A stretch of 64,000 bases of DNA from Patescibacteria group bacterium. GTDB lineage: Bacteria; Patescibacteriota; Patescibacteriia; XYB2-FULL-38-15. Under the pieces are notes generated by a model that had not been told where the DNA came from, did not search any database, and worked only from the letters and a program-made list of their open reading frames with translations. Made by a program: the position numbers and the translations under genes. The stretch lies in contig JBGSRW010000008.1 of assembly GCA_041737355.1 (NCBI GenBank), positions 191,061 through 255,060 of the forward strand. The letters run 5' to 3'. This document shows, one piece after another, positions 2,847 through 51,371 of this stretch (the first letter of the stretch is position 1; each line of letters starts with the position of its first letter).

Positions 2847-4601
2847 TTATTTAACGCTTTTGATTGATATATCTTCAGCTATCACTTCTGGCTCTTTCGC
2901 GGCGGAAAAATCAAAAAGATCGGTTTGTTTTTTTTCGTAACCGTCCTTAGTCACGGTAAGATAAAATTTGCTCTTACCCACCATAAAATTATACCGTCCA
3001 CGGCCGTCGGCCACCTTTGAATCGAGAAGTTTATCATAGGGCATAGCGAAAATCCGGAGAACCGCTCCCGGGACCGGTTCGTTTTCTTTTTCCGCGCGGA
3101 CCAGCCCCCAATTTTTTGGAGCTTTTACCGTAGCGAAGCGGCGGAAAAAAAGATAGACGGCAATTCCTAAAAAAAGCAAAAGACCGACGAACCAAGACGG
3201 TTTTATTATATAAGAAATAAATCCGAGGGCAGGACCGGCTAAAGCTACATATCCTTGAATTCTATGCCAGCGGTCTTTTTTAACGATCGCGGAATTTTCC
3301 AAATCTTTCGCAGTCGGATCAAGCGGGATATTCGGAGTAATCACGGCTCCTTCGGCCCCGACTTCAATCGTTTCCCCATGATATAAATCTAAATATTGAC
3401 CTTCTTCTTTTTTGCCTTTCGTGAAAACGCTTGGAAAATTAAAATTATTCTTAGCAGCTTCCAGGCGGTATTTTCCGGCAGGAACCAAAAAGGAAAAACT
3501 CCCCGCCTTGTCGGTTACTTCGCTTGCTAAAATCCTTCCGCTTTCCGCTTCGCGCAATCTGACAATAGCCAAATCCTCGGGAAGGCGCGAGAGGGAATTG
3601 TAAACCGTTCCCCAGGCTTTCCTCTTCCGTCTCCTGAATAAAAGCAGCGGCTGGCTGATAAAAAACAAAAGGTACCGCAAAAAATCGACGGAAAGAGTGG
3701 CTTGGGCGGCGAACGCCGAATTGGCTACCGCAACGGCGGCGGCGGCCGGAGCGACGCCTTTTTCGGCTATAGCTTCAACAGTCGGATTATCCAAAAAAGA
3801 ATTTCCACCGGAAGCCGAGATTCTTATTGCTACCGTTTCCCATTTTCCGGAACCTCCGGCCGAGGCGACTTTGACAAGGCCGATTCCCCTGACCCACCAC
3901 TCGTCCATAACTACACTCGTCGATGAGGCGGGAAAATTTATTGAAGGGTCTGACGTGCCGGCAGACCCTCTCCCCGACGCCGTCGGGAATTTTATCCCCG
4001 GCATAGACATATCAATGGAACTTTCTACCCTTATCTTCAGGGCCACGTAAGTGCCGGCGGGAACAGTTATTTTTTCTTCCTTGACCACCTTGTTTGTGGA
4101 TTTAACGGTCATTTTAATTCCGCCGAAACCGCCGGGCATTTCCGCTCCTTCAAATTTAGATGACATGGTATATTTAGTGGTCCAGACCGAACCAACTTTG
4201 ACGTCTTTCGGCATTAAATCCCCTTCCACACCTTCCGTATCGCTTCTCATCTCCACTCCTCCCGTTCCCGAAGTCAAATTCATGTATGTATCGGTTGTTA
4301 TACGACCGTTCTCGCAAAATAGATTTTGCGTCATTGTCATGCCTTTTTTTGTGCCGAAAATATATTCTATTTTGGCCGAGCCGGTAGCCGTTTCAAGAAC
4401 TTTCATGGTGTATGAACTTTCCCCGCCGGCTCCGGAATTTCTATATTCAATTTCGTCCCCCGCCCGGAGCGGAAAATAAGGATTATCGCACATATCTCCA
4501 GCCGCCCTGATTTTTTGAAAGGGAAAAACGAAACCGCAACAGGTAATTAGAATCACCCCCGCCAGGAAATGAAGACTTGTCTTAAGGTTCTCTTTTTTCA
4601 T
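2847..4601 (-). CDS. Secreted/membrane-anchored protein with two carboxypeptidase-regulatory-like beta-sandwich segments
   Basis: 584 aa. N-terminal signal/TM (LHFLAGVILITCCGFVF), internal TM helices. Segments like LAIVRLREAESGRILASEVTDKAGSFSFLVPAGKYRLEA and AVLRIFAMPYDKLLDSKVADGRGRYNF resemble CarbopepD_reg folds. Confidence 0.45.
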   Translation of the reverse strand: MKKENLKTSLHFLAGVILITCCGFVFPFQKIRAAGDMCDNPYFPLRAGDEIEYRNSGAGGESSYTMKVLETATGSAKIEYIFGTKKGMTMTQNLFCENGRITTDTYMNLTSGTGGVEMRSDTEGVEGDLMPKDVKVGSVWTTKYTMSSKFEGAEMPGGFGGIKMTVKSTNKVVKEEKITVPAGTYVALKIRVESSIDMSMPGIKFPTASGRGSAGTSDPSINFPASSTSVVMDEWWVRGIGLVKVASAGGSGKWETVAIRISASGGNSFLDNPTVEAIAEKGVAPAAAAVAVANSAFAAQATLSVDFLRYLLFFISQPLLLFRRRKRKAWGTVYNSLSRLPEDLAIVRLREAESGRILASEVTDKAGSFSFLVPAGKYRLEAAKNNFNFPSVFTKGKKEEGQYLDLYHGETIEVGAEGAVITPNIPLDPTAKDLENSAIVKKDRWHRIQGYVALAGPALGFISYIIKPSWFVGLLLFLGIAVYLFFRRFATVKAPKNWGLVRAEKENEPVPGAVLRIFAMPYDKLLDSKVADGRGRYNFMVGKSKFYLTVTKDGYEKKQTDLFDFSAAKEPEVIAEDISIKSVK

Positions 4602-43658: not shown

Positions 43659-45794
<2,136 letters not shown>

Positions 45795-45929: not shown

Positions 45930-46130
45930 ATGACTGTTTCCCTTACCAACAACAAACTGACAAATTATCTGCGTGAATCCTACCAGGAATTAAAAAAAGT
46001 CGTCTGGCCGACAAAGCAGGAAACCACTAACCATACTCTTCTTGTTATCGGCATCAGCCTTGGCGTCGCCGCATTTTTGGGCGCGCTCGATTTTCTCTTT
46101 ACTTGGCTTTTCACAAGCTTTGTGAAATAA
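45930..46130 (+). CDS. secE: Preprotein translocase subunit SecE
   Basis: 66 aa. LKKVVWPTKQETTNHTLLVIGISLGVAAFLGALD single-TM SecE pattern. Sits upstream of nusG, the canonical order. Confidence 0.75.
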   Translation: MTVSLTNNKLTNYLRESYQELKKVVWPTKQETTNHTLLVIGISLGVAAFLGALDFLFTWLFTSFVK

Positions 46131-46176
46131 ATCCGAAACCTTTCCGCCAAAGGCGGAAATTATATATTTTTAAACT

Positions 46177-46722
46177 ATGCCTAAACAAATAGCCCAAAGA
46201 GGAAGACTCTGGTACGCGATCCATACCTATTCCGGCTACGAGGAAAACGTCGCCCACAATTTGAAACAGAGAATCGAATCAATGGGCATGCAGGACAAAA
46301 TTTTCAGCGTCTTAATCCCGACTGAAAAGAAAATAAAAATTAAAAACGGAAAACGCCGGACGGTAATCGAGAAAATCTTCCCCGGCTATGTTCTCGTGGA
46401 AATGTTTGTCACCGACGATTCATGGTATGTCGTGCGGAACACTCCGAACGTTACCGGCTTCATCGGCACGGGAACGATTCCCACTCCCCTTTCCGAGGGA
46501 GAAATAAAACAGCTCCAGAAAAGAATGGGAGAAGAAGAACCCCAATATAAAATTGACGTCACGGTCGGCGCGCCGGTCAAAATCAACGACGGACCGTTCA
46601 AGGGTTTCGAAGGAAAAATTTCGGCTATTGATGAGGCCCGCGGCAAGGTTAAAGTACTGGTAAGCATGTTCGGCCGGGAAACCCCGGTAGAATTGGACTT
46701 TTTGCAAGTTAAAAAAATATAA
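46177..46722 (+). CDS. nusG: Transcription termination/antitermination factor NusG
   Basis: WYAIHTYSGYEENV NGN domain, C-terminal KOW (GAPVKINDGPFKGFEGKI). Confidence 0.85.
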   Translation: MPKQIAQRGRLWYAIHTYSGYEENVAHNLKQRIESMGMQDKIFSVLIPTEKKIKIKNGKRRTVIEKIFPGYVLVEMFVTDDSWYVVRNTPNVTGFIGTGTIPTPLSEGEIKQLQKRMGEEEPQYKIDVTVGAPVKINDGPFKGFEGKISAIDEARGKVKVLVSMFGRETPVELDFLQVKKI

Positions 46723-46788
46723 AATAAAATTACATTGTTATATTGCTAAATGCTTCTAGTTTAGCTCTTAACCATGTAGCGTAAAAGT

Positions 46789-47217
46789 ATGGCAAAAAAA
46801 ATTAAGACAGTAATAAAATTACAAATTCCGGCCGGTAAGGCCAACCCGGCGCCGCCGATCGGTCCGGCGCTCGGCCAGCACGGTTTGAATATCGCCGAAT
46901 TCTGTTCCAAGTTCAACGCGGCCACTTCGAAAATGGCCGGCGACATTATCCCGGCGGAAATCACCGTTTACGAAGACCGCACCTACACCTTTGTTTTAAA
47001 AACCCCTCCGGCGGCCGAACTTTTAAAAAAAGCCGCGGGGATTGAAAAAGGTTCAGGAAAACCCTTGCAGGAAAAAGTTGGCAAAGTCACCCGGGCGCAA
47101 ATCCGGGAAATTGCCGAGAAAAAAATGCCGGACCTGAACGCGAACGATATTGAAGCGGCTATGAGGATTATCGAAGGCACAGCGCGGCAAATGGGTGTGG
47201 AGGTAGTTGAAAAATAA
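46789..47217 (+). CDS. rplK: 50S ribosomal protein L11
   Basis: [26 protein letters not shown] signature. Confidence 0.9.
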
Positions 47218-47229
47218 TTTTATATTCAC

Positions 47230-47670
47230 ATGGCATTCAAACTAAATTCGGTCCGGACAGTTTATTTCTACCTGATCGCCCTGATTGCCCTTATGATGAT
47301 TGTCTGGGGAACCGTTGATCTTGCGAACCTCGGCCTTACAACCTGGGTTTTTAAAAAAGCCGATAAAGCCGACGATTGGGCTCCGCCGGTTCCTTACATG
47401 GTAACCGAAGTAAAGCTTGGGGAAACTGCCGCCCGCTGCGCGGAAAAGTGCGATTTAACTGCCGACGAAAAGCTGCAGATTCAAAATTGGCTAGTTGACT
47501 ACAAAAACTGGCAGGATCAGCAAGGAGTTTTGAAGGTCGCGAGAAAACAAAAAAACGCCGTCCGGGATATTTCCATGCTCGTTGTCGCCATTCCCCTGTT
47601 CTTGTGGCATTGGAAAATGATCAGCAAGGAAATAAAAGAAGCGAAGGAAAATACTAATAAAGAAGTTTAA
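47230..47670 (+). CDS. Hypothetical small membrane protein inserted between rplK and rplA
   Basis: 146 aa. N-terminal TM (VYFYLIALIALMMIVWG) and C-terminal TM (MLVVAIPLFLW). Starts 13 nt after rplK. Confidence 0.45.
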   Translation: MAFKLNSVRTVYFYLIALIALMMIVWGTVDLANLGLTTWVFKKADKADDWAPPVPYMVTEVKLGETAARCAEKCDLTADEKLQIQNWLVDYKNWQDQQGVLKVARKQKNAVRDISMLVVAIPLFLWHWKMISKEIKEAKENTNKEV

Positions 47671-47725
47671 ATTTTAATTTCGTGGGAGACCAAATTAAAT
47701 AAGGTCGTCATTACCACAAAAACTT

Positions 47726-48403
47726 ATGCGCGGAAAACGCTATCAGGAGGCGAAAAAATCCATCGACCCTAAAAAGAGTTACTCTCTCGACGAGGCTTTG
47801 GACATGATTAAAAACGGACCTAAAGAAAAATTCGATGCCGGAGTTGAAATCCATATCAAGCTCGGCATTGATCCTAAAAAGGGCGATCAATTGGTGCGCG
47901 GCATGCTCGTTTTGCCCCATGGCATCGGCAAGACGAAAAAAATTGCCGCTTTTGTCGAACCGGCTCTGGAAAAAGAGGCAAAAGAGGCCGGCGCGGAAAT
48001 CGTCGGCGGAGAAGAATTGATTAAGGAAATCAAATCCTCGGAAAAGGCCAATTTTGAAATTGCAGTGGCAACTCCGACCATGATGCCTAAACTCGCCCAG
48101 ATCGCGAAAATCCTAGGTCCCAAAGGCTTGATGCCGAACCCGAAAACCGAAACGGTCAACCCGAATATCAAAAAAATTATCGGGGAATTAAAGAAAGGAA
48201 AAATCAACTTCAAAAACGACGACGGCGGAAACATCCATCAATTGCTTGGAAAAGTTTCCTACGATAAGGAAAAACTTCTGGCGAACCTGACCGCTTTCAT
48301 CGAAGCCGTCCGCAAGGCCAAACCGGCCGCGGCCAAGGGCGTTTACATCCAAACCGCCGTTATCTGCTCGACCATGGGTCCGGCGATTAAAATAAACTTC
48401 TAA
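47726..48403 (+). CDS. rplA: 50S ribosomal protein L1
   Basis: KRYQEAKKSIDPKKSYSLDEAL ... GPKGLMPNPKTETV signature. Confidence 0.85.
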   Translation: MRGKRYQEAKKSIDPKKSYSLDEALDMIKNGPKEKFDAGVEIHIKLGIDPKKGDQLVRGMLVLPHGIGKTKKIAAFVEPALEKEAKEAGAEIVGGEELIKEIKSSEKANFEIAVATPTMMPKLAQIAKILGPKGLMPNPKTETVNPNIKKIIGELKKGKINFKNDDGGNIHQLLGKVSYDKEKLLANLTAFIEAVRKAKPAAAKGVYIQTAVICSTMGPAIKINF

Positions 48404-48416
48404 TCTCAAAATAAAT

Positions 48417-48950
48417 ATGGAAGAAAAATGTTATCGTCCGAATTGGGACGATTACTTTATGGCGATTACCAGAATTGTCGCTACCCGCGGCACTTGCGAC
48501 AGATTGCGGGCCGGCGCGGTTCTTGTAAAGAAGAATCGGATAATCTCCACGGGCTACAACGGTTCGCCTCCGGGGCTTCCTCACTGCGATGACGTTGGTC
48601 ATTTGATGGAAGAAGGGCATTGCATCAGAACAATCCACGCGGAACATAATGTTATTTTGCAGGCGGCTGTTATCAGCGGAGCAAACACAGAAGGCTCAAC
48701 CATGTATACGAAATTCAACCCCTGTATGCATTGCGCGAAATATGTCGTGGCTGCCGGAATAAAAAGAGTTGTTATCGGCAAACTATATCGTGGAGAAAAA
48801 GCCGTGGAATATTTGAAAGAGGCCGGAGTGCAAGTTGACATTTACCAGGAAAATCCCGAGTGGAATAAATCCGTCCGGGAACTTTTTAACCAGGAAATTG
48901 AACAAACATTAGCTAAAGAAGGCGATGTTCAATTGCAGGTCGCAAAATAA
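48417..48950 (+). CDS. dCMP deaminase (ComEB/cytidine-deoxycytidylate deaminase family)
   Basis: HAEHNVI zinc-binding motif and PCMHCAKYVVAAG (PCxxC). Confidence 0.8.
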   Translation: MEEKCYRPNWDDYFMAITRIVATRGTCDRLRAGAVLVKKNRIISTGYNGSPPGLPHCDDVGHLMEEGHCIRTIHAEHNVILQAAVISGANTEGSTMYTKFNPCMHCAKYVVAAGIKRVVIGKLYRGEKAVEYLKEAGVQVDIYQENPEWNKSVRELFNQEIEQTLAKEGDVQLQVAK

Positions 48951-48955
48951 ATACT

Positions 48956-49531
48956 ATGGCCGATCCGCAAAATAAAATAATCGTCGGTCTTGCCGGGAAA
49001 ATTGCCTCTGGGAAAGAAACTGTCGGAAAATATTTGGTGGAGAAAATGGACGGAAAAAAAATAAAATTTTCCGATCCCCTGCGCCAGATCCTTGATATCC
49101 TCGACCTTCCCGACAGCCGACAAAACATGCAGACGCTTTCCACCGTTGTCAGACAAAATTTCGGGGGAAACGTTCTGGCTCAGGCGATGATGAAATTGGT
49201 TGCACGCTTGGAAAATAAACTTGTAGTAATCGACGGCGTCCGGCGCGTAACCGACATTGAAAACTTCCGGCAATTAAAAAACTTTTTTCTTGTCTATATT
49301 GACGCCTCCTCAAAAAAAAGATTTGAAAGGTGCGTGCAGAGAAAGGAAAACCCCGGAGACGGCGAGATGACCCGCGGAGAATTCGACCGGAAAGACAATG
49401 CCGAAGCCGAAGAGCAGATTGAATCGTTAAAAAAAGAAGCGGATTTTGTGGTGAAAAACGACGGGACCATGGAAGAGCTATACCTGGAGATAGAAAATCT
49501 TTTGGAAAAAATCCATGCAACTCAAAATTAA
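48956..49531 (+). CDS. P-loop nucleotide/nucleoside kinase-like protein
   Basis: 191 aa. Walker A GLAGKIASGKET near the N-terminus. Embedded in the thymidylate gene cluster. Confidence 0.5.
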   Translation: MADPQNKIIVGLAGKIASGKETVGKYLVEKMDGKKIKFSDPLRQILDILDLPDSRQNMQTLSTVVRQNFGGNVLAQAMMKLVARLENKLVVIDGVRRVTDIENFRQLKNFFLVYIDASSKKRFERCVQRKENPGDGEMTRGEFDRKDNAEAEEQIESLKKEADFVVKNDGTMEELYLEIENLLEKIHATQN

Positions 49532-49949
49532 ACGCATTGATAAATCATTGCCACTGCCCGAATACAAAACCAACGGGGCGGTGGCTTTTGATTTAACGGC
49601 GAGAATCGATATTGAAATAGAACCGCACGCCATTGCCCTTATTCCATTGAACGTCATTATTGAAATTCCAAAAGGCTATACAATAATTCTGGCGCCGCGG
49701 AGCAGCTTGCCTATTAAAAAGGGCCTGCTTATTCCGAACGGCCTGGGAATTTTTGACCAGGATTATTGCGGACCGGAAGACGAATGGCGCCTCGAAGTTT
49801 TGAACTTTACCGATAAAAAAGTTAAAATTGAAAAAGGAGAAAGGATCGGTCAGGGTTTGATTTTACCGATAGAAAAAGCCGAATGGCTTGAAGTGGAAAA
49901 AATTGATAAGCCGAACCGCGGCGGCTTTGGCAGCACGGGTCAGAAATAA
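49515..49949 (+). CDS. dut: dUTP diphosphatase (dCTP deaminase/dUTPase superfamily)
   Basis: 144 aa. Jelly-roll dUTPase motifs (GAVAFDL, RSSL, GLGIFDQDY, GERIGQG). Confidence 0.8.
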   Translation: MQLKIKRIDKSLPLPEYKTNGAVAFDLTARIDIEIEPHAIALIPLNVIIEIPKGYTIILAPRSSLPIKKGLLIPNGLGIFDQDYCGPEDEWRLEVLNFTDKKVKIEKGERIGQGLILPIEKAEWLEVEKIDKPNRGGFGSTGQK

Positions 49950-49982
49950 ATTTATAATTTTCAATTTCTAATTCCAAAAAAT

Positions 49983-51371
49983 ATGGAAGAAAAATACAAA
50001 CGAAAGATTTATACCCTGGAAGGATTGTCCCCGGAAGTCCGGGCCGTTACTTTTGCCAAATGCAGCCGCTCGCCGGAATCATTCGCCGACATCGCCAAGG
50101 AACTGACCGAACAAAAATCCAGCGAGTTTCACGAGAAATGGGTTGTCGGCTACGGCCATTCTTCGGTCGCCGAGCACGCCATTTTATCATTGGCACTGGA
50201 AAACGTTTCGATTCTGGCCACCAAAGTAATCGAAGACAACCGTCTGGCCTCCTACACGGAAAAATCGACACGCTACCAGGTTTTTGATCGCGAAAAGTAT
50301 TACAAACCGAAAAAAATAATGGATTCTTCGTTCGGCAAACTCTACGAAGAAACGGCGAATTTTCTTTTTGATACCTACACCGATCTTACCGCCAAGGTAA
50401 TGAATTACGTAAAAAACAAAATTCCAAAAACCGAAGAGATGACGGATAAAATGTATGAAACTGTCTGCAAGGCAAAGGCCTGCGATATTGTCCGCTATAT
50501 TTTACCGACCGCCACTCTTACCAATCTCGGTATGACAATAAACGCCCGGAACCTCGAACACGCTATCGCGAAATTGCTGTCGCATCCGCTCGAAGAAATG
50601 CAGGATATCGGGCGGGAACTGAAAGAAGCGGCGGAAAAAGCGACCCCGACCCTTATCAAATACGCCAACGCGAATAATTATCTTCGCGAAACAAATCTTT
50701 CTCTCGAAAAAACGACCAAGAAAATTTTGGGCGGAGAAAATGTCGCCCCCGAAGAAAACCAAGCCAAACTTGTCGCCTACGACGAAGACGCACTTGACCG
50801 CGTCGTCGCTCCCCTGCTCTACAAATATTCAAACTCTTCATACGGGGATATCAAGGAAAAAGTTAAAAATTTGCCGCGAGAAGAAAAAGAAAAAATCCTT
50901 GAGGAATCACTGGAAGGAATGAGCCAATTCGACCGGCCGCTCCGCGAACTTGAACACACCTATTACACTTTCGATATTTTGATCGACTACGGCGCCTTCC
51001 GCGACGTCCAGCGGCATAGAATCTGCACCCAAACCAACCAGGAAATCACCCCGGCTTACGGTTACTCGACCCACGAAGACATTGTCGCCGCCGGATTTCA
51101 AAAAGAATACGAAGAGTGTATGAAGCGGGCTGCCGAAATTTACCAAAAAATTGCCGCGGAATTTCCCAAGGAAGCCCAATATATCCTGCCGCTCGCCTTC
51201 CGTAAACGGGTCCTTATCACCTGGAACCTCCGCGAACTTTTCCATTTTATTCCGCTCCGGAGCAGCAAGAAAGGCCATATTTCCTACCGCCGGATCGCCG
51301 GACAAATCTGGGACGAAATAAATCGCGTCCATCCGTATTTTGCTAAATATATTAAAGTCGATAAATCTTAA
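49983..51371 (+). CDS. thyX: Flavin-dependent thymidylate synthase ThyX, tandem-duplicated (pseudo-dimeric) form
   Basis: 462 aa. C-terminal half carries the RHRxxxxxxxS ThyX motif (RHRICTQTNQ...S). N-terminal half is ThyX-like (HSSVAEHAILSLALENVS...STRYQ) but lacks RHR. Confidence 0.7.
   Translation: MEEKYKRKIYTLEGLSPEVRAVTFAKCSRSPESFADIAKELTEQKSSEFHEKWVVGYGHSSVAEHAILSLALENVSILATKVIEDNRLASYTEKSTRYQVFDREKYYKPKKIMDSSFGKLYEETANFLFDTYTDLTAKVMNYVKNKIPKTEEMTDKMYETVCKAKACDIVRYILPTATLTNLGMTINARNLEHAIAKLLSHPLEEMQDIGRELKEAAEKATPTLIKYANANNYLRETNLSLEKTTKKILGGENVAPEENQAKLVAYDEDALDRVVAPLLYKYSNSSYGDIKEKVKNLPREEKEKILEESLEGMSQFDRPLRELEHTYYTFDILIDYGAFRDVQRHRICTQTNQEITPAYGYSTHEDIVAAGFQKEYEECMKRAAEIYQKIAAEFPKEAQYILPLAFRKRVLITWNLRELFHFIPLRSSKKGHISYRRIAGQIWDEINRVHPYFAKYIKVDKS

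Follow-up and report, generated by a model that had tools for sequence, protein, structure and literature searches.

A DUF5671-family membrane-protein gene between rplK and rplA in Patescibacteria and a predicted L1-type leader hairpin in front of rplA

The stretch of 64,000 nucleotides analysed here (hereafter the window), belonging to a Patescibacteria group bacterium (contig JBGSRW010000008.1, positions 191,061 to 255,060), contains between the genes of ribosomal proteins L11 (rplK) and L1 (rplA) an open reading frame (ORF) of 146 codons, designated ORF146. The data indicate that ORF146 is a genuine and old gene of the DUF5671 family set between rplK and rplA, that it would be co-transcribed in the window with these two neighbours, that L1 feedback would be limited to rplA by a leader hairpin preceding this gene, and that its product would be a dimeric protein with two transmembrane (TM) helices connected by a disulfide-bearing loop; a probability of about 0.7 is assigned to this account taken as a whole. 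The locus can be described, pending the qualifications given below, as a ribosomal-protein cluster with an embedded membrane-protein gene and a predicted rplA-proximal L1 operator. Its central features, all on the + strand, are the following.

46789–47217, +: rplK (L11), 142 amino acids (Pfam Ribosomal_L11_N 99 bits, Ribosomal_L11 110 bits)
47230–47670, +: ORF146, 146 amino acids, small membrane protein of the DUF5671 family (Pfam PF18920, selection, codon usage, synteny)
47260–47316, +: predicted TM1 of ORF146, residues 11–29
47437–47451, +: CxxxC of ORF146, C70/C74 (CAEKC; codons 47437–47439 and 47449–47451)
47569–47625, +: predicted TM2 of ORF146, residues 114–132
47682–47717, +: putative L1-binding-type leader hairpin of rplA, 36 nucleotides (motif, covariation, covariance model)
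47726–48403, +: rplA (L1), 225 amino acids (Pfam Ribosomal_L1 187.7 bits)

ORF146 as a member of the DUF5671 family

The ORF list and the Pfam scan bear out the preliminary description of this locus, made from the letters of the window, according to which the gene of a small membrane protein with a cysteine pair lies between rplK and rplA, and several lines of evidence concur in indicating that ORF146 is genuine, is maintained by selection and encodes a predicted small integral membrane protein of the DUF5671 family. Its product matches DUF5671 (PF18920) with 43.8 bits (E = 2.8e-11), the gathering score being 28.4 bits, and the match spans the conserved first and last helices. A word-indexed protein search returned 41 homologues, all of them already annotated as PF18920 and every named one belonging to Patescibacteria or Parcubacteria, while an exhaustive profile search for the family yielded 1026 cluster representatives at E ≤ 1e-3, 404 of which remain at the stricter limit of E ≤ 1e-10; full-length homologues of ORF146 reach down to ~30% identity. 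Comparison with seven relatives (78–88% protein identity) gave ratios of nonsynonymous to synonymous substitution rates (dN/dS) of 0.04–0.11, with dN of 0.06–0.14 and dS of 1.2–3.1, the synonymous sites being nearly saturated. Furthermore, a codon-usage measure trained on the window's confident genes gave log-odds of +61.9 for the annotated frame and of −9.5 or lower for the five other frames, and neither frameshifts nor premature stops were seen in nine relatives. No paralogue of ORF146 was detected in the 64-kb window and no family for it was found in NCBIfam and PHROGs.

The opposite view, namely that ORF146 is a fortuitous ORF or a remnant in decay, devoid of a product, and that the rplK–rplA spacer is merely long in this genome, may appeal to the lack of a Shine-Dalgarno-like sequence in the 12-nucleotide spacer and to the circumstance that ORF146 is known here from its sequence. 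Nevertheless, with dN/dS of the order given above at dS > 1, a DUF5671 match above cut-off, frame-specific codon usage and full-length homologues as distant as ~30% identity, this view appears already refuted by the tests of conservation and selection and its probability is practically nil. Indeed, the two findings that the preliminary description had named as fatal for the gene, i.e., an ORF unconserved in relatives and lacking coding signal, are the reverse of what is observed in the homologues, the dN/dS values and the in-frame codon usage.

DUF5671, of which ORF146 is a member, is entered in Pfam as an uncharacterised membrane domain without function and no mention of it was found in the searched literature, so that its association with this locus provides a first contextual handle; the fixed rplK–rplA position, the CxxxC or two-Cys loop and the tandem forms described below are additions to the Pfam description. 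CPR (candidate phyla radiation)/Patescibacteria have reduced genomes and unusual ribosomes and, to our knowledge, almost none of their lineage-specific genes has been experimentally characterised. Being retained under strong purifying selection across Falkowbacteria-, Uhrbacteria- and related lineages, within a neighbourhood that ranks among the most conserved of bacteria, the gene is well suited as a candidate for a housekeeping membrane factor that defines the lineage.

Position between rplK and rplA in relatives

The order secE-nusG-rplK-X-rplA, where X is the DUF5671 gene, is found on the contigs of the loci designated L001, L003, L005 and L006/7, whose ORF146 homologues display 80%, 58%, 43% and 42% identity, respectively. 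When one genome per GTDB species was scanned for ORF146 homologues, 80 loci were obtained, the closest records being those of Candidatus Falkowbacteria (88%), followed by Uhrbacteria, Magasanikbacteria and Parcubacteria. A tblastn search over 87 loci, with L11, L1, NusG and SecE of the window as queries, showed X 3′ of L11 in 29 distinct loci, down to ~38% identity and with tandem versions included, L1 being also downstream in 26 of them; rplA follows X wherever the contig reaches that far (29 distinct relatives). The flanking proteins of the syntenic loci are 65–98% (L11) and 50–96% (L1) identical to those of the window, and four of the six tandem-form genes whose surroundings were examined occupy the rplK–rplA slot (L026, L089, L093, L094). 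In a neighbour-joining tree, which is built on ~130 residues and is indicative only, the syntenic genes fall into separate deep clades, one Falkowbacteria-like with CxxxC and the other Uhrbacteria-like, and between them lie the Magasanikbacteria-like copies, which are located elsewhere or only upstream of rplA.

Since the gene occupies the same slot in 29 distinct relatives, the insertion is to be considered, on these comparisons, as old and not as an accident of one genome, and would predate the split of the Falkowbacteria-like, Uhrbacteria-like and tandem-duplicated lineages. These belong to the “Parcubacteria 1” group of Tsurumaki et al. 2022 (PMC9297842), a paper in which the rplK–DUF5671–rplA locus is not discussed. 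What the preliminary description had implied to be a local oddity is instead an arrangement common to at least three divergent subfamilies in these lineages. The searched literature yielded neither a paper combining Patescibacteria with rplK and rplA nor a report of the rplK–DUF5671–rplA arrangement across several candidate phyla, tandem forms included, and this gene order offers a simple synteny marker for the clade.

The rplK–X junction is a recurrent insertion point. A DUF218 protein and a peptide deformylase are encoded between rplK and the DUF5671 gene in L038 and L079 (1215–2427), and other hypothetical ORFs are found at this junction in L021, L023, L025, L029 and L032; despite the presence of these other genes in some relatives, X stays adjacent to the rplA leader. 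As to the records themselves, many “binchicken” metagenome-assembled genomes titled “uncultured Gammaproteobacteria bacterium” carry clearly Patescibacteria-type loci (e.g., L010, L011, L014, L016, L018), as do one “Woesearchaeota” and one “Methanosarcinales” record, the titles being unreliable for taxonomy.

The leader of rplA and the transcription of the locus

The preliminary description had been based on the premise of an Escherichia coli-type L1 control of rplK–rplA and had proposed to look for an L1-binding leader structure. Such a structure, a 36-nucleotide hairpin of the L1 type, is indeed present, yet it lies 5′ of rplA and 3′ of ORF146, within the 55-nucleotide spacer separating the two genes, and ends 8 nucleotides 5′ of the rplA ATG. 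Upstream of rplK, on the contrary, the motif occurs in none of the 27 nusG–rplK spacers of relatives and is likewise missing from the window, where both the motif and the covariance model were applied, so that the premise must be abandoned for this locus.

The leader reads GUGGGAGACC-AAAUUAAAUAA-GGUCGUCAUUACCAC (47682–47717) and its layout, GUGG-GA-[GACC…GGUC]-GUCAUUA-CCAC, mimics H76/H77 of the L1 stalk of 23S rRNA. The E. coli stalk, GGUGGGAGGC…GCCGACC…AUACCACC or, in a further form, GGUGGGAGGC…GCCGACCUUGAAAUACCACC, shares the GUGGGAG / CGAC / ACCAC frame with the leader; written as GGUGGGAG…CGAC…ACCACC its motif is identical to that of the leader, and the counterpart of its GGUGGGAGGC…GCCGACC…ACCACC in the leader is GUGG-GA-G… / …C-GUC…CCAC. 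The pattern GTGGGAG-N10-40-ACCAC, for which 0.02 matches would be expected in the 64-kb window, occurs there once, and in 25 of 26 distinct relatives the leader motif lies no more than 260 nucleotides 5′ of rplA. When the helix was set in 16 distinct simple leaders at constant distances from their two invariant ends, without folding, 97.7% of the cells were standard pairs compared with 84.2% in shuffles, not one of 500 shuffles being as good, and sliding the 3′ partner by 1–3 columns caused the pairing to drop to 35–66%. Furthermore, all four pairs of the inner helix P2 change on both sides (G-C/C-G; U-A/C-G/A-U; C-G/U-A/U-G; etc.), and the covariance model R1, built from 14 simple leaders, has the leader as its sole match in the 64-kb window and gives no false positives in 314 kb.

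L1-interacting mRNAs have been described by Fu et al. 2013 (PMC3616713) as consisting of a 6–12-bp stem and a bulge with a G-A pair and an unpaired A, Proteobacteria having the site in front of rplK, Cyanobacteria, Actinobacteria and Chloroflexi having it immediately 5′ of rplA and Firmicutes in both places, with an operator before rplA known also in archaea; no CPR/Patescibacteria lineage is among the phyla named. The window leader fits the “before rplA” type, the GA-bulged short stem and the GGGAG…GAC signature immediately 5′ of rplA being the same as in these RNAs and in the L1 operon of Methanococcus vannielii, and the predicted RNA adds a Patescibacteria member to the known class of L1 operators, differing from the sites of Fu et al. 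in that it follows a non-ribosomal gene and not rplK. By its presence, the locus would extend the predicted L1 autoregulatory RNA to Patescibacteria.

By analogy with the known family, excess free L1 would bind the leader hairpin and block the initiation of rplA only, rplK and ORF146 remaining outside the feedback, and L1 autoregulation most likely acts on rplA alone. Since the operator lies downstream of the inserted gene, the insertion would leave L1 autoregulation undisrupted and the loop would be intact but local; an operon can apparently absorb a foreign gene and keep its feedback control because the operator adjoins the regulated gene. The window shares with the E. coli L11 operon the secE-nusG-rplK…rplA neighbours on one strand, but differs from it in having the operator-type motif before rplA and not before rplK, in lacking rplJ–rplL behind rplA and in that a 441-bp membrane-protein gene separates rplK from rplA and makes translational coupling between the two impossible.

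The leaders of the relatives are not uniform. In those of the Uhrbacteria-like type (L005, L006, L016, L023, L025, L032, L038) an additional hairpin separates the GAC element from CCAC, giving a three-way junction closer to H76/H77/H78 of 23S rRNA than the published two-helix L1 sites; this hairpin is present in L032 but not in its close relative L034. Palindromic insertions of ~114–130 nucleotides occur in the apical loop of the leaders of L015 (~2920–3115, compared with L003) and L010 (~2945–3110, compared with L011); they keep the L1-binding-type core intact and resemble small mobile elements or miniature inverted-repeat transposable elements. The leader motif is absent in the tandem-form loci L026, L089 and L094, in which the stop of X abuts or overlaps the ATG of rplA (1412–2386/2383, 1330–2316/2317 and 504–1472/1469, respectively), a geometry suggesting that translational coupling may replace the L1 operator in these loci.

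As to transcription, the remaining features of the region are as follows.

43764–45794, +: gyrB (ORF list and Pfam scan)
45930–46130, +: secE, 66 amino acids (Pfam SecE 69.7 bits)
46141–46159, +: terminator-like hairpin 3′ of secE, UUUCCGCC-AAA-GGCGGAAA followed by a U-rich tail (consensus match only)
46177–46722, +: nusG, 181 amino acids (Pfam NusG 103 bits, and KOW)
46702–46730, +: sigma-70-like site TTGCAA-17-TAAAAT (9 of 12 consensus positions; weak)
48417–48950, +: dCMP deaminase (Pfam dCMP_cyt_deam_1 85 bits), first gene of a cluster for deoxynucleoside triphosphate (dNTP) metabolism

The order on the + strand between 43.7 and 51.4 kb is gyrB, secE, nusG, rplK, ORF146, rplA, dCMP deaminase, a dNMP-kinase-like P-loop (AAA) protein, dUTPase and ThyX. 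The rplK stop is separated from the ORF146 ATG by 12 nucleotides (the distance of 13 nucleotides reported earlier is correct within the counting convention, 12 bases lying between 47217 and 47230) and ORF146 from the rplA start by 55; no promoter-like or terminator-like site was found on the + strand from 46730 to 48403 by sigma-70 and hairpin–U-tract consensus scans. With these spacers and this outcome of the scans, a single rplK–ORF146–rplA transcript represents the most economical solution and ORF146 is probably co-transcribed with its neighbours in the window, the same compact spacer layout being found in L001. The site TTGCAA-17-TAAAAT, the only sigma-70-like one upstream of rplK, is a weak candidate for the promoter of this transcript. 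Thus, between the two outcomes envisaged in the preliminary description, namely co-expression at ribosomal-protein levels or disruption of the operon, the spacers and the scans make the former likelier, whereas a disruption of L1 autoregulation finds no support.

Membrane-protein genes are carried in other ribosomal-protein operons, as is the case of secY in spc and of secE before nusG, where a membrane protein likewise lies inside a ribosomal-protein unit and is presumably expressed in step with growth. ORF146 would be transcribed together with rplK, rplA and probably the downstream dNTP genes, and its product would be a constitutive, growth-coupled membrane protein, like those of secE upstream or of secY in the spc operon.

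Some details of the region deserve mention. The hairpin and U-tract at 46141–46159 are good and lie between secE and nusG, a usually co-transcribed pair. SecE of L005 and L006 is 113–135 amino acids long, about twice the 66 of the window. The genes rplK and ORF146 are in one reading frame (47215–47232: TAA TTT TAT ATT CAC ATG), so that stop-codon read-through at rplK would fuse L11 to the membrane protein; the possibility that this shared frame is meaningful was rejected, since the corresponding spacers of the relatives have lengths that are not multiples of three, and it is probably a coincidence. Behind rplA the place of rplJ–rplL is taken by the dNTP-metabolism cluster (48404–51371; also in L001, L005, L006 and L093), variants of which occur downstream of rplA also in distant relatives, and no L7/L12-like sequence was found anywhere in the 64-kb window.

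Architecture and possible roles of the protein

ORF146 has an unambiguous hydrophobic segment at residues 11–29 (Kyte-Doolittle 19-residue mean 2.27) and a second one at residues 114–132, which is borderline by hydropathy (1.56 with the 19-residue window, 1.94 for residues 111–125 with a 15-residue window) but represents the most conserved part of the family. The loop between the two helices comprises ~80 residues and holds C70-A-E-K-C74; in the AlphaFold2 (AF2) model of the single unit, helices extend over residues 5–40 and 78–145. The family alignment conserves the motif YFYLxSLIALMM…D…LGLxTWVF..AD of helix 1 (given also as YFYLxxLxxLMM), Q..AVRDIS at the entrance of helix 2 and IPLFLxHW within it. 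The orientation can be deduced from the 3-TM and tandem forms, which possess an extra N-terminal TM with an uncharged N-terminus and an arginine/lysine-rich linker before helix 1: by the positive-inside rule, this linker following the extra TM would place the long loop outside and the termini of the 2-TM form inside. ORF146 would accordingly be pictured as two TM helices with cytoplasmic N- and C-termini and an ~80-residue helical loop exposed outside.

About one fifth of the collected members (34 of 190) are head-to-tail tandems of two units, 270–330 amino acids long, for which the AF2 model is confident (predicted local distance difference test, pLDDT, 85.6; predicted template modelling score, pTM, 0.80). 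The frequency of these fusions suggests that the working unit of a DUF5671 protein is probably a dimer. CxxxC is retained by each half of the 34 aligned tandem forms, giving four invariant cysteines, and C74 is invariant in the family alignment A1; among 152 single-unit members, on the other hand, exactly two cysteines are present in 108 (37 as CxxxC, the rest 13–46 apart), one in 11 and none in 26. This two-Cys pattern with variable spacing (4, or 13–46), along with the existence of members without Cys, is read as a structural disulfide, and the Cys pair is probably that of an extracytoplasmic helical cap and not a catalytic or metal site.

Some of the data weigh against the account given here. 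The free energy of the leader alone is unexceptional (z = −0.98), so that the case for this RNA is carried by conservation and covariation, R1 recovers only 2 of the held-out leaders, since most of these carry large insertions or inserted hairpins, and Rfam 15 gave no match to the leader (region at E ≤ 10), the existence of an Rfam model for L1-type RNA being unconfirmed; overall, with the region examined at E ≤ 10 and the entire window at the gathering score, Rfam returned only two chance-level matches, RsaJ and sR14, and no tRNAs. The numbers of promoter and terminator sites in the scans are not above shuffle expectation, whereby the failure to find a promoter is a weak argument for co-transcription, and in the Uhrbacteria-like L005 and L006 rplK and X are each followed by a terminator, with a good TTGAC-17-TAxxxT promoter just in front of the rplA leader. 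As to the protein, the AF2 model of the single unit is of low confidence (pLDDT 67.9), the positive-inside count of the 2-TM form alone is ambiguous, and a Foldseek search of PDB with the single-unit model had a best E of 1.9, the fold searches producing only generic helical-hairpin matches. Finally, other DUF5671 homologues (Magasanikbacteria-like and of Bacillota) reside in unrelated contexts; that of the cultured Bacillota Ruminiclostridium sufflavum (L084) lies close to an ArsR-type regulator and to a response regulator, an uninformative context, and the small ORFs upstream of the non-syntenic homologues of L053 and L075 are not conserved. The Uhrbacteria-like relatives show that the gene order is conserved but the transcriptional wiring is not, which speaks against the view that X is kept in its position by co-transcription. 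The wiring of L005 and L006 could also mean that in the window itself the insertion splits the operon, ORF146 and/or rplA being served by AT-rich promoters of their own and ORF146 being expressed below the ribosomal-protein level; the X–rplA spacers of 90–190 nucleotides in the Falkowbacteria-like L008, L010 and L013 have room for promoters, and those of CPR may be missed by a consensus scanner. For the window, with its short spacers free of hairpin–U-tract and −35/−10 matches, a layout kept in L001, and with X and rplA abutting or overlapping in the tandem-form loci, a split remains unlikely and the single transcript is preferred.

What could be the role of a protein so placed? With low confidence, it may be regarded as a housekeeping factor of the envelope or membrane, whose expression would follow growth, rather than as a component of the ribosome. 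A tie with the surrounding translation and secretion machinery, for instance as an accessory of Sec/YidC insertion or as a membrane factor docking ribosomes, with a need for stoichiometric co-expression, would account for the position in the secE-nusG-rplK-rplA cluster kept across three divergent subfamilies, for the coupling geometry with rplA in L026, L089 and L094, for the peptide deformylase that L038 and L079 have at the rplK–X junction and for the K/E-rich cytoplasmic tail of ORF146, and has the textbook precedent of secE and secY. It is made quite improbable by the lack of similarity to SecG or to any solved structure, by the relatives in which promoters and terminators are separate, by the homologues in unrelated contexts and by a second recurrent context beside ferredoxin and NifU. 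Equally doubtful appears the stronger proposal in which DUF5671 would be a lineage-specific core component of Parcubacteria-1 operating with the translation/membrane-insertion machinery and having in the CxxxC outer loop a functional site. If, instead, the loop were cytoplasmic, the cysteines might form a redox-active or metal/Fe-S (iron–sulfur) site, 2 + 2 across the dimer, of a membrane factor for redox or metal handling, as their invariance in both halves of the tandems and that of C74 in A1 would allow, together with the location of two divergent tandem members directly upstream of ferredoxin and NifU (L091, L092). This possibility is hardly likely, for 26 of the 152 single-unit members have no Cys and 11 only one, the spacing varies from 4 to 46, the arginine/lysine-rich linker puts the loop outside and neither ferredoxin nor NifU lies beside the window gene, so that a structural disulfide is still favored.

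Searches for relatives of known function gave little. The family profile found nothing at E ≤ 1 in a sequence search of PDB, and identity with SecG was rejected, the hhalign probability against Bacillus subtilis SecG being 0.2% and no SecG Pfam match being present; ORF146 is related neither in sequence nor in fold to SecE, SecY or SecG. In L091 (2501–5263) and L092 (208–1828) tandem DUF5671 genes, each with four invariant cysteines, are followed by a small ferredoxin (Fer4_13/15/19) and NifU, a NifS-type cysteine desulfurase being also present in L091; this neighbourhood, a second recurrent context of the family, hints at a possible redox or Fe-S link.

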